From IMG/VR virus record IMGVR_UViG_3300037195_001681, positions 1 through 64,000 of that record: a stretch of DNA of 64,000 bases. One strand, given 5' to 3'. Of the stretch, positions 18,775-64,000 are shown piece by piece. Below the pieces are notes generated by a model. The model did not search any database and was not told the DNA's origin. It was given only the letters and a program-made list of their open reading frames with translations. This DNA is from an uncultured virus (IMG/VR IMGVR_UViG_3300037195_001681). Its lineage: Duplodnaviria > Heunggongvirae > Uroviricota > Caudoviricetes > Schitoviridae. Position 1 is the first letter of the stretch. The number at the start of each line of letters is the position of its first letter. The translations under genes and the position numbers were made by a program.

Positions 18775-19209
18775 TCACCTCGATCCTTGGTATGAGCCAC
18801 CGTCATAGCGACGGCGTATCTGAAGTCGATCCAGGTTGAGCTGGATGGCTTCAGGGGTTGGTGTGTAATTCTTGAGCCAGAAGTCTGGATCCTGGTCGAT
18901 CATGGCAGATGTGCCGAGCATGTCGATCACATCATCGTACCAGATCTGAATCGCAGGATCCTTGCGGAGGTCCAGACCTCGACGCTTACCTTCATGCCAG
19001 AGGTCCGAGTGCCGGCGATCGAGATAGCGGATTTTGTCGTAGAAGAATCTGAGATGACCAGTGCCAAGGCGGTAGCTCTCAGGAATATCCCGATCATTCT
19101 TCTGGATCGCCCGATATATCAAGGGCCACATTCGAGGTAACTCGAAATATTCGGCCATGATGAAATTATCGGTGAGCGCAGCGACCGCGACTACGTTGAT
19201 GCGGGTCAT
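18775..19209 (-). CDS. denV: Pyrimidine-dimer DNA glycosylase / endonuclease V
   Basis: MTRIN N-terminus, AEYFELPR (catalytic Glu), YRLGTGHLRFFYDK, YTPTPEAI. Confidence 0.92.
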   Translation of the reverse strand: MTRINVVAVAALTDNFIMAEYFELPRMWPLIYRAIQKNDRDIPESYRLGTGHLRFFYDKIRYLDRRHSDLWHEGKRRGLDLRKDPAIQIWYDDVIDMLGTSAMIDQDPDFWLKNYTPTPEAIQLNLDRLQIRRRYDGGSYQGSR

Positions 19210-19356
19210 GAGAATCTCCAGGTAGAGTTTGTTATACTGGACTATCCACCTCTGACCAGTGTTGGTTGCGAGTGTCTCCGGATATTATCCTTCGTTTCGT
19301 CTCTGCCCGGTTTGACTCCGGGTTTGATAACCCAGTTGTCTCTGGAATCCGAAGAA

Positions 19357-19694
19357 ATTTAGGAGAGATATTGGCTCTTGTCACGGGATCGAACCGGGAC
19401 ACCCTGACATGATCCACCTAACATTCCACCGTTGACGTCGACGAGCGATCGCTTCGTATGGCTGTGTATTCCCCGTCGGGAAGGTGGCGCCGTGAGACTT
19501 ATGCGTCAATTCGCACTTCTTACGTCCTCTAAGCCGCCCTTGTCGGCACTTGCGTAACCGCTCCGCTACTAACTCTTTCAGTGCGCGCTGATGCTAGATC
19601 ATCGCTGAAATCGTGTTCGGTTCATCACGGAATACGAGGACTCCCTGCGCTTCACGAACTCACAGGGACATGCGGGCCAATATCTCTTCTAAAT
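19357..19694 (-). ncRNA. Unidentified ~340-nt structured RNA (candidate)
   Basis: 21-nt terminal inverted repeat enclosing at least 6 internal helices; no credible ORF; lies inside the tRNA/tmRNA array. Confidence 0.6.
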
Positions 19695-19714
19695 CTCCTC
19701 TAAATTGATTTATT

Positions 19715-19842
19715 AGATCTCCTTCGGGATGGCCGGGCTCCGCTGCACCCGTGGCTTTCGTGAGCTTGCTCTGCCTGGGCCTGGTCGTGATCAGAACCAA
19801 GAACCTGTTTGAAAGGTCAATCGGCCATCTCGAAAGAGATGT
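19715..19842 (-). ncRNA. Unidentified ~125-nt structured RNA (candidate)
   Basis: ~20-bp closing stem ATCTCTTTCGAGATGGCCG/CGGCCATCCCGAAGGAGAT; strand assumed from neighbours. Confidence 0.45.
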
Positions 19843-20020
19843 AGGGTGGGGTCCGCCTGGCTGCTGCCTCCCCCGGTGACGCGTTTACTACTCCAGGCTT
19901 TAGGGCTCGATCCAGAAGACAATCTCGAAGCCATACTAACCTACCAGCTTATATTGGATGTTTCTGGGAATATTCCCTTCGTTTCTGTCCAAGCCACATG
20001 GGAGTCTTCTAGTACGAAAC

Positions 20021-20165: not shown

Positions 20166-20242
20166 TGGTTAGGAAGACAGGATTTGAACCTGCGACCCTC
20201 TACTCCCAAAGCAGATGCGCTACCAGACTGCGCTACTTCCTA
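20166..20242 (-). tRNA. tRNA-Pro (UGG)
   Basis: TAGGAAG/CTTCCTA acceptor stem, TCTGC-TTTGGGA-GTAGA anticodon arm, GGTTCAAATCC T arm, encoded CCA. Confidence 0.95.
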
Positions 20243-20332: not shown

Positions 20333-20349
20333 TCACTACAAAAATTCTG

Positions 20350-20640
20350 TGAGAGTTTCTGTTGCCAGGTACCCTCGGACCCCTGTGAATTTACGCCGCC
20401 AGGCGGAGAACGGGAACGCTCTCGTCGTTGTCGTTGACGTTTAGTCGAACTGTCAGCTAACGGCTGCCAATCGGGCCGCGTTCCGCATCTCTCGGCACAG
20501 TCGATCCTGGTTCGCCCCCATCAACTACACCGCACCTGTAACGCGTCTCACAACCTAAGGTTGGGTGCGGTGTAGATGGTGGAGGCGGCGGGTACTGCCC
20601 CCGCGTCCTCGTGCTTCAATCAACAGACCGAATTACGGCC
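20350..20640 (-). ncRNA. ssrA: Circularly permuted (two-piece) tmRNA, alphaproteobacterial type; tag (A)VNDNDESVPVLRLAA
   Basis: Acceptor piece ends GGGGGCAGTACCCGCCGCCTCCACCA (20577). An intervening hairpin (20520-20576) follows. The coding piece starts GGGGGCGAACCAGGATCGAC (20519), giving a G3-U70 pair. Tag ORF 20438-20391 ends LAA-stop, then ACCTGGCAACAGAA. Outer ends are approximate. Confidence 0.93.
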
Positions 20641-21022
20641 ATTCCCAAGTGCCAACAAGGGATCTTGAGAAACTCATGTGTAGGTGGCCCTAGGTCTGAT
20701 CGTCAAGAGTTATCTTGATGAGAGCAGCCTAGGGTCGCACGCTAAATCCCTCATAGCCGACAGAGTGTTTCAGAGGAATATCCTCAGGTTTCTATTCTTT
20801 ACGGACGTAGTATCGGGATCTTTCTAACTTTATTCCGGCCTTTCACCGGCCACTACAACCAGGGTCGTCCTGGAGGCCTGACACCTACGTTCAGGACTGG
20901 GGGCGATATCGCTCATGCTCGCGGACACCTTTGACCCAGGGGCAGGGGAGGCTCTGCTTCCTCAGGCTCACCACTCGTATGGCGCAATGCCAGCAGCAGG
21001 TGACGCTGATTCGAATATAAAG

Positions 21023-21096
21023 TGGAGAAGCGACCGGATTTGAACCGGCGCACCGGGTCGTGACTCCCGAGCTCTACCGGGCTGAGCTACGCTTCT
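21023..21096 (-). tRNA. Aberrant tRNA-like element (8-nt anticodon loop AGTCACGA; Val-CAC-like or undetermined)
   Basis: Acceptor (AGAAGCG/CGCTTCT), D and T arms are intact; anticodon arm is one nt short; CCA follows the stem with no discriminator base. Confidence 0.7.
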
Positions 21097-60300: not shown

Positions 60301-63300
60301 AGCTGAGAAACCTCAGTCTGGCACTGAGCAATCGCGTCCAGTATCTGAAGAAGCTCCGAAGGAGGTTCCAGAAACTCCAGATATTCAGGAGAATGAAGAT
60401 CAGCAGGATCGACCAGACCAGCTGCAAGATCAGCAGGAAGCTGAGCAGGAAGATCGTCCAACGGGAGAGAAGGTTCGTGGGATCGAAGCGGCATTTCCCA
60501 ATCTCCTTGGTTCGGGTAATTCCGGGGATACAGCCCAGGAAAATCTGTTCAAGTCGTCGTTCGATATTCCGGCCAAGGAGCCGATCTCGCGACTGACTGG
60601 AACGGAAGATACGCTCTCTCTGGTTCGCGGAGCTCTGCGATCACCAACTGCTTTCCGCAAAATGGTTGGTGATGGTCGGCAGGAAAGTGTTGCCGGTCGT
60701 ATCACGACCGCAATGGCCAAGGCTTACGATCGTCTCCTGGCCTCCACGTCTGACGTCGTGGCGACAATGGATGATCGTCTGAGCAGTATTTTCAAAGAAA
60801 GAATTCAGAAAAAGAAGAAATTCGATCTAGGCTTCGAAGAGCTTCGAGCGATGAACATCGCTGAACAGAACGGTGAGTTAGTCAGCTATAACGCTTCGCT
60901 GCGTGACAGTGCGATCCTGGCAGGTCTTCAGTGGTTGCTGACGAGTGACCAGCGCCGGCGTCCGATGGATGCTGAAGACGTGGCCAAGATCCTGGCTGTC
61001 CCTGTGCATGAAGTCACAACCGAACAGGTCGAACGCTTCAATCAGGGCGCATACCTGGCTGCTTCGGTGAATGAGCTGGGTGAGGTGATCACTCGTTTCT
61101 GGGGTGTCACCCCGAATTCTTCAGCTCCATACGGAGTAACTCGTGGTATTCCCGAAGGTGTCGGCAAGGAAGTCCTGGCTGCAATGAACGAAGCCGGTCT
61201 CGTGAAAATCAACGAGATCAAGGAAAACGGCAAGACCTACTACCAGGTCGAATCCCTGGCAGAACAGAAGCTGGGTTCCGAGCTCTATTCGGAGCTGATG
61301 GCATGGCCATCGGCAATCGAAGTCGCGTCGATCGTCGAGCCGGAAGAAACGACTTTCCTGGGCTCACCGCCTCCGACTGTGCCGAAAACCCAGCTGCGAA
61401 ATCCGCTGGTCTCGTTGACGAGACAGCAGCGTGAAATGGCAGAGAACGAGCAGGCAACGCCTTATCGTCTGAATCTTCCGATGATCTCTCTTCTGGAGGA
61501 TCTCGGAGAAGAAGCGAGTGTGGCTCTGTTCGGTCATGGAAATCTTACCGAAGATGCCATGAATGTGAACCACCGCAGGTCGCTGGAAAGCATCAATCTC
61601 ACCGTGCGATCGGCTTATAAGTCGATCATGGCCCGGCTCTCGGAAGCATCTTCGTGGGGTCAGGCAAACGGCGTCGAGGATGCAGGACAGGTTCCGATCC
61701 ATTACGCCTACGAGTTCACGAGTGTGAACCGTCTCCAGATGGTTGGTGCTCATAATCCGCAAGCCAACAAGCTGACACGCGAAGCGATCCTTCCAACGTG
61801 GTCGGAATTGGATCTGACCAATCCGGAACAGCGCAGCAGCTTTTTGCTGGGTATTGCTCAGGCATGGGGTGTAAAAGTCCATAAAATGCCTCGCAAGGAA
61901 GCCATCAAGGAAGTAAGAAAGATGGCTTCCGAGAGTGGACAAATGGCCCCAGCTCTCGAATTGCTGTCTGGTCGGAATGCCGGCCAGGTCTTCAGCGATG
62001 AGGACATCCAGGTTCTGCGCGATTCGCTCGGCAAGGGTGGGCCAGTGCCGGCTGTGGCGCTTCACGCTGCAATGGAATTTGTTCGCTATCAGAACGGATC
62101 CAAGGAAGACCGATCGAATTTCCGTACCAGTCTCTATGTCGAGGCGGATGGTATTACCGATGGTCCGATTAATGCCATGGTCCATGCGGCCCGTGGCACG
62201 TTCAATGACAACTGGTTGAATGTCGTCCGTAAAGGCGGCCTGTTCCTGGGAAGCCCCGGGATGACTGCCAATGCTTCGACCGACAAGGTCGATTTGTACG
62301 AGCACACGACAGGTTTCCTTCGTCAGGCAATGTCCCGGATGCGTTCGGAATTTGCTTCGAACCCAGAAACCGGTGCAGTCGCCCGTCAGATGGACGTGCT
62401 TTTGCGGATGATGGCTCAGCTTCTTCCGGACATCACGATCAACGACAAGGGTGAACTCGTTGTCGAACGTGGTCTGGTGAAGAACCCTCTGACCGTCACG
62501 ATCTACGGCGCCGGTCCATCGGGGATTGCCTCGAAAATCACGGAAGCTTTGCTGGGAGCTGTTTATGAACGTGAGAGCCAGAAGGTCGCGTTCCTGAAGG
62601 ATCGGCCGAAGGCTTCGAAGCAGGAAATCGCTGAGCATCTGTTCGGTCAGCTGGCGACGACTCCTGAGCGTGCTCTTGAGCTCTACGACGAATATAATTC
62701 GGAAATGAGCAAACTTGTTGATCAAAGGGTAGAAATTACCCAGGAAGGTCTGCGTCTGAATGAAGACGCCCGTCCTCGCGATAACACCGGCAAGCTCATC
62801 GAAAATCGCAGTATGCGTGATGGACCCCAGGGTTTCACCCTGTTGCCTGGACAGGTGAGCAATATTCAGTCGAATGTTCTGCGGTTGCTGGTTCGCCCGA
62901 TGCGAGAAGCGATCGAGGCTTCCATCGGTGAAACCACGCAAGGTGTAGATGCTCTTCGTCGATCGACGCAGGTGCAGAGCATTTATCTGGAGCACGCTTT
63001 CCGACGTGCAGTCCAACAGAAGCTGGACGAAAAGAAGAAAGCGGATCCGAGTTTTCGAAAATCGGACTTCCTGACGAACAAGGAATTGACTGAGATTTAC
63101 GATAGTCTCAATCACCTTGCTCCATATATTCGTACCGGAAATCAGAACATGCTGGTTTCGGGAAGCAAGAAAGCACCGATCGGAGAGAATGACTCTTCGG
63201 TCAGCTTCAGCCGTACACTGGACGGTCGTCTGGCAACGCCGGCCTCGATCTTCGGTCCTTCGAACTCGGGTGTCTCAGGGATCCCTTATGTGATCATCGG

Positions 63301-64000
63301 GACCGGTGATGGACTGATGATGCAAATTGCATCAACCATGGCTGGTGCTCCGGAAGGCACACTGAAGATTTTCGACGGTATGAACATGCCTCTCGACAAG
63401 ATCGAAGAGCAGAGCCGTTCGGTCAATGAAGCCGTCTATCGTGGATGGATGGAAAATCCGCTTGAAGCCGTGGCCACGAGCTACAGCGACTTCGTGAAGG
63501 ATGCTGACGTCGAAACGATCAGCTNNNNNNNNNNAGAGGATCGCTCTGAGCGAAGCCCTGCTTGGTCCAGGCAAGACGGAAGCCACGAACGAAGAGATCA
63601 TCGAGATGATCCGTTCGCTGGATACCGAAATGTCTCAAATCGCTCGTGAGAGCCAGGCTCGAAAGAACGCCCTCGCCCGGGTCCAGATGACTGTGGATCA
63701 CATGGCTTCGGCTGAAGCATCGTATGATGCCGAAGGAAATCTGCTGTCGCTCGAAGGTCTGACGGATCAGGAGATTCTGTCTGTTCTCAATGAGCTCTAT
63801 GCTGAAGAGCTCAATAAATTGAGTAAAGCAGAAGATACCAAAAAGAAAACCGAAGAAAATACCCAGAAGGGTAGGATCTTCGGTGAAATTGAAGCCGTGC
63901 CCGCTTCAGATCTCCCAAGGTTCATCGCTCAACTCAATGTGAACCAGGATCAGAAAAAGCTGATGCTCGAAGCTGCCCGGGCTCTGAAGGACACGGATTG
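57338..64000 (+). CDS. Virion-encapsidated RNA polymerase (N4 gp50-like), truncated by window end; assembly gap at 63525-63534
   Basis: NRLQM, EADGITDGP, RGLVKNPLTVTIYGAG, LKIFDGMN motifs; no cysteine seen. After the N gap another frame continues (RIALSEALL...RKNALARVQMTVDHMAS) towards the window end. Confidence 0.96.

Follow-up and report, generated by a model that had tools for sequence, protein, structure and literature searches.

What kind of gene lies between a cluster of transfer RNA (tRNA) and transfer-messenger RNA (tmRNA) genes and the gene denV on the minus strand of an uncultured N4-like phage of the Schitoviridae (IMG/VR record IMGVR_UViG_3300037195_001681)? We analyzed the first 64,000 nucleotides of this 72,189-base virus (hereafter, the window), in which a first-pass annotation made from the letters alone had marked positions 19357-19694 as an RNA of several domains, about 340 nt long, that might be a new or permuted class of large noncoding RNA. 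The minus-strand sequence does read as that annotation described it, and comparison with homologues shows that 19351-19700 (-) is an RNA gene with several helices, conserved and under selection, whose phage-specific family Rfam 15 does not contain. A long terminal stem of the RNA bears a T arm and a D-like hairpin resembling those of tRNA, and its short relatives (120-160 nt) consist of little beyond the stem, the D-like hairpin, and the T arm. As to function, the reading that we favor, and about which our confidence is evenly divided, is that the molecule would serve as a Y-RNA-like tRNA-mimic scaffold or decoy, that is, a stable, trans-acting structured RNA of a phage superfamily that operates here without a phage-encoded Ro60 protein.

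We scanned the whole window with Rfam 15 at gathering score, and positions 19100-19950 on both strands against all 4227 families at E<=10. No family matched at the element on either strand at that threshold, so the models for raiA, ROOL, GOLLD, RNase P, signal recognition particle (SRP) RNA, introns, tRNA, and YrlA all fail there; the ROOL and GOLLD models also gave no match at gathering score over the whole window. The scan agrees with the first-pass remark that signatures of RNase P and SRP RNA are lacking, and the group I and group II intron models are negative at the element at E<=10 as well. The same annotation had suggested a resemblance to the raiA motif with its segments in swapped order; no raiA match, full or local, appears at E<=10. 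The raiA RNA is like the present one only in being a structured bacterial or phage RNA of more than 200 nt and of unknown function, and it belongs to Firmicutes and Actinobacteria, not to phages of Alphaproteobacteria. The proposal of a new large noncoding RNA class is thus borne out, by the lack of any Rfam match and by homologues with many compensatory changes, whereas the permuted raiA-like version of it is not. ARAGORN calls four genes in the window, none of them at 19351-19700. On the minus strand the element folds with a minimum free energy of -118.4 kcal/mol (z = -2.41), a stability equaled by none of 100 shuffled sequences, and between 19210 and 21166 the gene strand holds no long open reading frame (ORF), the sole overlap being a 61-aa ORF at the 3' end of the RNA.

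Eight further homologues of this large form, delimited by terminal stems of their own, bring the set to seven full-length sequences (274-359 nt) and two partial ones. A blastn search of 50,697 phage records with three family members as queries returned only Agrobacterium phage JP1 and Rhizobium phage RHph_Y1_11, in both of which the homologue occupies a gene-free gap, together with a match at the T arm in Sulfitobacter phage vB_SupP_AX. Searching with a core pattern, GUUACGCAAGU followed by the P6 hairpin (helices are numbered in Table 1), we obtained four loci in viral contigs, with true members on three contigs, and 12 loci in metagenome records, four of which are true (one being the window's own sequence and one a cut copy); among 185,579 genomes, one per species, the same pattern occurs at 10 loci, none of them a member. 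Looser core patterns in viral contigs brought no new members, one set of 15 new loci being negative throughout. A covariance model of the 5' domain (R1) gave 10 hits at 104-164 bits in 30 sources, counting the window, which scores 140.7 bits, and its duplicate L025, with everything else at or below 18 bits; R1 had no match in two genomes serving as taxonomic centers. One of the partial copies (G005) remains partial, as its 3' half is absent from the opposite end of its contig.

The structure of the large form was obtained by aligning the seven full sequences with MAFFT and folding the alignment with RNAalifold, which gave ten helices; the T arm was placed by hand. In this structure, 88.3% of cells are paired and 33 of 59 pairs have changed on both sides. 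None of 500 shuffles matches any of these measures, and controls slid along the alignment reach 35-49% paired, although the advantage over the slid controls arises partly by construction because the structure came from the same seven sequences on which it was scored. For the 5' domain, nine sequences can be compared, with 94.6% of cells paired and 17 of 32 pairs changed on both sides. The closing stem, P1, is real and longer than the 21 bp originally noted: its arms span 25 nt and are 88% complementary as measured by the repeat-finding tool, with one A.C mismatch and two G.U pairs on reading by eye. The P1 sequence is unrelated from one member to another and pairs near-perfectly within each, and 12 of its 16 aligned pairs change on both sides. 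The corresponding counts are three of six in P3 and two of five in P4, and the P5 arm inside the P3 domain varies in presence, being found in the window, in its closest relative (L006), and in RHph_Y1_11.

Comparison of homologues also settles which of the helices proposed in the first pass can be kept. The helix TCCCTGTG/CGCAGGGA corresponds to P2, GCCG/CGGC to P6, the long-range pair CCACC/GGTGG to P8, and the hairpin CGG-TTCGATC-CCG, with its TGT/ACA extension, to the T arm, whereas TTTCAG/CTGAAA survives as a variable arm, replaced in L006 by a hairpin with another sequence. Roughly one in three of the helices put forward was wrong: CGTG/CACG, TTACG/CGTAA, and TTGACG/CGTCAA must be rejected because they clash with the covarying helices P4, P3, and P7, respectively, and the suggested long-range pair GTATTC/GAATAC is complementary only in the window and L006. 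The invariant parts of the large form are the junction CCGCAUGU, CGyAUUC, GUUACGCAAGU, the hairpin GCCG-ACAAGGn-CGGC, the P7 loop AAUUrA, CACGGCG, and the T arm, whose three inner pairs and loop pattern UUCnAnC are the same in all seven full large forms and all 28 mini forms described below. The interior of P8, by contrast with these, is variable and aligns poorly between homologues. Two candidate tertiary contacts are left as ideas, one between GAAU of the P7 loop and AUUC of the joining segment, the bases of which are invariant, and one between the P2 loop and UCUCAC, which is not kept in every member.

Table 1. Coordinates of the large RNA, its structural parts, and its nearest neighbors in the window
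Feature	Position	Strand	Basis or remark
Whole RNA element, large ('maxi') form, ~350 nt	19351..19700	-	Bounds set by 25-nt inverted repeat
P1, 5' strand of closing stem	19676..19700	-	Inverted repeat and covariation
P1, 3' strand of closing stem	19351..19375	-	Inverted repeat and covariation
Conserved single-stranded junction CCGCAUGU	19668..19675	-	Kept in 8 of 9 large forms
P2 hairpin, 7 bp, loop AGUUCGUGAAG	19643..19667	-	5 of 7 pairs change on both sides
Domain closed by P3 (GUCCUC/GAGGAC), holding P4, variable P5, invariant GUUACGCAAGU, and P6	19524..19641	-	
P6 hairpin GCCG-ACAAGGG-CGGC, 4-bp stem	19533..19547	-	Loop invariant in all large forms
P7 hairpin GUGCG-AAUUGA-CGCAU	19501..19516	-	4 of 5 pairs change on both sides; 100% of cells paired
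Conserved linker AAGUCUCACGGCG	19488..19500	-	Homologue alignment
P8 (CCACC/GGUGG) around a 64-nt segment	19414..19487	-	4 of 6 aligned pairs change on both sides
T arm UGU-CCCGG-UUCGAUC-CCGUG-ACA	19379..19401	-	One C.U mismatch; 3-bp extension
DenV, endonuclease V / pyrimidine-dimer glycosylase, downstream gene	18775..19209	-	phrog_1183, E 1.1e-30
tRNA-Pro(UGG), nearest same-strand upstream gene	20166..20242	-	Rfam, ARAGORN
Two-piece (permuted) tmRNA gene	20348..20710	-	Rfam alpha_tmRNA 121.3 bits, tmRNA_permuted 88.8 bits; ARAGORN

In a near-identical marine relative (run X7), the RNA differs by a single change in 338 nt, C to U, which turns a G-C pair into G.U, and just outside the stem 16 bases (19701-19716) are replaced by 212 other bases. 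The RNA of another N4-like contig (G004) is 75.8% identical over 327 nt, with flanks that have no nucleotide match, and it occupies another place in the genome with respect to the gene for the virion RNA polymerase. The occurrence of the element in unrelated phage backbones and at differing positions indicates that it does move, and this, together with its canonical T arm, its D-like loop, and its location in a tRNA/tmRNA cluster, could speak for a tRNA or tmRNA gene that has decayed or contains an intron, or for a selfish mobile cassette of RNA, of no use to the phage. We consider that explanation most improbable, given that ARAGORN and the Rfam tRNA, tmRNA, and group I and II intron models are negative at the element, that it has no stem of acceptor length, no anticodon arm, and no CCA, and that it is under purifying selection, with compensatory changes in 10 helices and pairing preserved even by the single change in X7.

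In vB_SupP_AX, the stretch that matches the T arm (29 nt, identical to the window RNA) falls within an unannotated element of 133 nt that also has CCG-ACAAGGG-CGG and a terminal stem. In this cultured N4-like roseophage, the element (L003 1412-1544 (+); OQ722443.1 about 61960-62092) is flanked on one side by a gp43-like gene and on the other by a gene whose annotation is virion RNA polymerase; used as a blastn query against the phage records, it finds only itself. A pattern combining the D-like hairpin with the T arm recovered 15 viral loci with 11 distinct sequences, and the T-arm signature alone recovered 38 loci, 33 of which belong to the superfamily: 29 short, or mini, forms (13 known from the set of 15 loci, 13 new and strong, and three weaker), two large forms, and two midi forms (L110 and L116). 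The other loci are two tRNA-Leu genes and three unassigned. Three viral loci, L093, L099, and L106, have the exact T-arm signature without an ARAGORN tRNA call or a match to R1 or to R2, our covariance model of the mini form; they may represent further architectures of the same superfamily.

The 28 mini forms of 120-160 nt consist of P1, a helix CACUAGGnn/nnCC-AA-CAG, the D-like hairpin, and a T arm that is extended by GUGU/rCGC and runs straight into the 3' strand of P1. In a MAFFT alignment of 12 sequences, 92.4% of cells are paired and 19 of 33 pairs have changed on both sides; with all 28 sequences, in an alignment fitted to the model, the figures are 90.5% and 25 of 33. All four pairs of the stem equivalent to P6 covary across the 28 mini forms, and a hairpin with a UGAAGC loop is present in many of them. 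The midi forms, which score 45.6 and 47.1 bits with R1 (L110 and L116, respectively), carry the junction (as CCGAAUGU), P2, P7, P8, and the T arm, and are without P4, P5, and GUUACGCAAGU; L110 matches R2 as well, at 24.5 bits. We define the superfamily by a terminal stem of free sequence, a hairpin with an RYAAGG loop, and a T arm GG-UUCnAnC-CC near the 3' strand of the stem, and the window RNA has all three. Common to all forms are a free-sequence terminal stem of 10-25 bp, a hairpin with an ACAAGG loop, and the T arm GG-UUCGAUC-CC. Rfam has no family matching the mini elements at E<=1, and R2 detects no mini form elsewhere in the window's own record, nor any in 24 alphaproteobacterial genomes that encode a TROVE (Ro60) protein (137 candidates scored per genome).

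The shared modules point toward tRNA. As in tRNA and the tRNA-like domain of tmRNA, the T stem-loop has equivalents of G53-C61 and of U54..A58 and is stacked beside the terminal stem, and by our reading P6 resembles a D arm, the A..GG of its loop being spaced like A14, G18, and G19 of tRNA. The differences are equally plain: the terminal stem has 10-25 bp rather than seven, and there is no anticodon arm, CCA end, or tag reading frame. Among known families the closer parallel is YrlA (RF02553), in which a helix formed by the 5' and 3' ends likewise carries a tRNA-like module with a T arm and a D-like arm, and several such RNAs occur per locus. The gathering score of that model, 69 bits, is reached neither by the window RNA nor by the mini forms; the present family has no capped acceptor stem, and the roughly 150-nt 5' domain of the large form has no counterpart in YrlA. 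Other Y RNAs were compared through their published descriptions. In Deinococcus radiodurans, Yrn1 is described as having its terminal stem in the acceptor position, with the T arm toward the 3' side, and Yrn2 as sharing a transcript with a tRNA (both PMC4201824); Yrl1 and Yrl2 of Thermus phage phiLo are phage-encoded and reported to bind host PNPase unaided (PMC12135203). All of these are about 100-200 nt long and located beside Ro60, unlike the window RNA, with its ~350 nt and no Ro60 in its genome. We regard the present RNA as a putative Y-RNA-like tRNA mimic with a 5' domain that is wholly new.

A more direct link to Y RNAs comes from two mini-bearing contigs. Of 28 records with a mini form, two (G006 and G412) encode a TROVE protein, and in both the mini form lies within about 1.1 kb of the Ro60 gene, on the same strand, near a sub-threshold YrlA hit. 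In G006 the order along one strand is a YrlA-like match (34.8 bits, E 1.7e-4), the mini form 185 nt later, and an ORF with TROVE and vWA domains ~1 kb farther on; in G412 it is a YrlA-like match (34.5 bits), the TROVE ORF, and the mini form 56 nt past its stop codon. By a rough, post hoc estimate, such adjacency would arise by chance in both contigs with a probability of about 2e-4. Chen et al. 2014 (PMC4201824) define candidate Y RNAs as lying on the same strand within 4 kb of Ro60, and describe several Y RNAs per locus, with T arms and co-transcription with tRNA; the adjacency in G006 and G412 fits both the 4-kb criterion and the pattern of several per locus. The two YrlA-like elements themselves (L078 6012-6129 and L119 587-653) fall below the gathering score, and the Rfam YrlA model seems to miss such phage Y RNAs. 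We also observed a viral Ro60 gene (TROVE plus Ro60-type vWA) inside an array of at least 20 tRNA genes on an IMG/VR contig, L080; in the 7129 bases examined there, neither a mini form nor a YrlA match is present.

These observations suggest how a Y-RNA-like scaffold or decoy might work. The RNA would be cut from the transcript of the tRNA/tmRNA cluster, with the closing stem protecting its ends; we count in favor of such processing the tight placement of the homologue in G003, where only 5 nt separate it from the preceding tRNA-Pro(UGG) and 13 nt from the tRNA-like gene that follows. The D-like loop would dock on the T loop, presenting a mimic of the tRNA elbow on a rod-like stem, as in bacterial Y RNAs, and the molecule could then act as a scaffold or decoy for host proteins that recognize tRNA or Y RNA. 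Its partner might be Ro60 where that protein is present, and otherwise PNPase, T-arm modification enzymes, or tRNA-targeting nucleases; engaging such partners would redirect the turnover or quality control of RNA during infection. A second binding surface may be supplied by the additional 5' domain (P2-P7, ~150 nt) that distinguishes the large form. The phiLo study (PMC12135203) reports that the Y-like RNAs of that phage bind host PNPase even without Ro60, which offers a route independent of Ro60. A bolder version, which we advance only tentatively and consider on the doubtful side, has the large form as one branch of a phage-specific, hitherto undescribed Y-like superfamily, every member presenting a tRNA-elbow mimic on its long stem. 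In this version the mini forms would be genuine partners of Ro60 in those few phages with a Ro60 gene of their own, and the large forms would have acquired their ~150-nt domain so as to act independently of Ro60, directly recruiting or blocking host PNPase or another factor that recognizes tRNA or serves in RNA decay or defense.

Several observations weigh against a Y-RNA-like function. No TROVE protein is encoded in any of the seven tested records with large or midi forms (G000, G003, G005, JP1, RHph_Y1_11, G423, and G425), the whole 72-kb record of the window being one of the seven, and 26 of the 28 mini records are likewise without one; eleven TROVE-less carriers are estimated to be 90-100% complete. 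Most carriers, this phage among them, differ from YrlA loci in this respect. In the two likely host orders, TROVE is found in 15 of 201 and nine of 201 sampled genomes, with many of the matches weak. The Rfam YrlA model matches neither the window RNA (E<=10) nor the mini elements (E<=1), and the D-like arm precedes the T arm, as it does in tRNA; YrlA instead has the T arm first, followed by a capped acceptor and then the D arm. In the 5' strand of the terminal helix (P1), the Ro60-binding motif GNCGAAN0-1G seems to be poorly conserved: it is exact in only one large form (L004, GACGAAG) and absent from the G412 mini form, but near-matches containing a GAAG core occur in seven of 11 large and midi forms, among them the window RNA (UAGAAGAG), and the G006 mini form has one too (AACGAAG). 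The contact between the D-like loop and the T loop lies beyond the reach of covariation because the bases are invariant. Finally, the matches of R2 to large forms are confined to the T arm (E 0.1-0.3), and therefore the unity of the superfamily rests on the shared modules and on the bridge formed by the midi forms.

ROOL and GOLLD (RF03087 and RF01998) are large, intricately folded, phage-borne RNAs with no conserved protein neighbor. According to a recent preprint (bioRxiv 10.1101/2024.12.08.627333), these phage and prophage RNAs are 'often near tRNA islands' and have no known protein partner. The window RNA could be a molecule of that kind, produced from tRNA-island transcripts and acting, independently of protein, through its own tertiary or quaternary structure, whether by self-assembly or by encapsulating or binding tRNAs or ribosomes, in which case the T arm would be merely an internal tertiary motif. 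The setting invites the comparison, as the window RNA lies in a tRNA/tmRNA cluster and four of nine large forms have a tRNA gene within 500 nt upstream, among them G003, L030 (tRNA-Pro(UGG), 80 nt upstream), and G005 (tRNA-Thr); no tRNA is nearby in JP1, RHph_Y1_11, L024, or G004. The restriction of the family to phages (none of the 10 pattern loci in the species genomes being a member), the absence of any flanking protein common to JP1, RHph_Y1_11, and the window, and the many invariant unpaired nucleotides of the large form also speak for it. We nonetheless think it unlikely, since there is no Rfam match to either family, even a local one, and the large forms, at 275-360 nt against roughly 580-800 nt, have half the size or less and carry explicit tRNA-like modules. 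Moreover, the minimal relatives are reduced to about 120 nt, with a stem and the tRNA-like modules, and a Ro60 gene adjoins two of them, which suggests protein partners; a tRNA gene within about 450 nt is found at none of 11 mini loci.

The genomic setting offers one further explanation. On the minus strand, the order of genes is a tRNA-like gene, tmRNA, tRNA-Met, tRNA-Pro(UGG), a spacer of ~465 nt, the large RNA, and denV, and a same-strand gene begins 20-150 nt past the stem not only in the window but also in JP1, RHph_Y1_11, L024, and L030. The element could be a cis-acting leader (a riboswitch or an element for processing or stability) of the downstream gene, here denV, and DenV does stand downstream in two of six loci scanned, the window and L030 (916-1326 (+)). 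Elsewhere, however, the downstream genes are unrelated (a phrog_20531 protein, hypothetical proteins, and rIIA after a tRNA), the G003 RNA has tRNA genes on both sides, and the G004 RNA has moved to another genome position. A stem of 10-25 bp that sequesters both ends is also ill suited to an expression platform, and a scan for promoters and terminators gave only chance-level matches, with no terminator-like site on the strand of the element (anti-terminators were not searched for). A cis-acting role is thus very unlikely in our judgment. The bacterial Ro60/Y RNA system is reported to be induced by ultraviolet light, but the adjacency of denV to the RNA may be mere synteny.

The phage itself is assigned as N4-like by PHROG matches to a virion RNA polymerase, a small RNA polymerase, rIIA, rIIB, DNA polymerase, a portal protein, a major head protein, and terminase. 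DNA sequencing runs that match the stretch are marine metagenomes, and no RNA run is listed for it; in a wastewater library labeled RNA-Seq (a label that we take as a guess, as the material may be DNA), contigs cover only 19418-19647 and 19698-19800. Several other features of the region were noted. The phage tmRNA gene is complete, circularly permuted, and of the alphaproteobacterial type, with the ARAGORN tag peptide VNDNDESVPVLRLAA, and is flanked by tRNA-Met and tRNA-Pro. The tRNA-like gene at 21024-21096 (-) has an abnormal anticodon loop (ARAGORN 'tRNA-???', with a two-base anticodon), and a second 'tRNA-???' gene (L057 7279-7355 (-)) lies immediately 3' of the homologous RNA in G003. A near-duplicate of the 5' strand of the closing stem occurs just upstream of it in the window, as AATTTAGAGGAGAT beside ATTTAGAAGAGAT (inverted repeats I3 and I6). 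A run of 10 N at 63525-63534 falls within the virion RNA polymerase gene.

Large, intricately folded RNAs of unknown function are rare in bacteria and phages and have historically been a route to new biochemistry. The family described here comprises about 40 natural sequences with strong covariation, in three size classes, and has been found in cultured phages, two with the large form and one with the small form, so that experiments can begin at once. The link to Ro60 loci suggests that phages harbor a wider range of Y-RNA-like tRNA mimics than the YrlA model covers, the majority of which would act without a phage-encoded Ro60. This bears on the purpose of the tRNA-like module of Y RNAs, and on the ways in which phages manipulate host RNA decay, tRNA metabolism, and tRNA-directed defenses. 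If the large form does act independently of Ro60, it would form, with the tRNAs and the tmRNA, a phage 'RNA quality-control island'.

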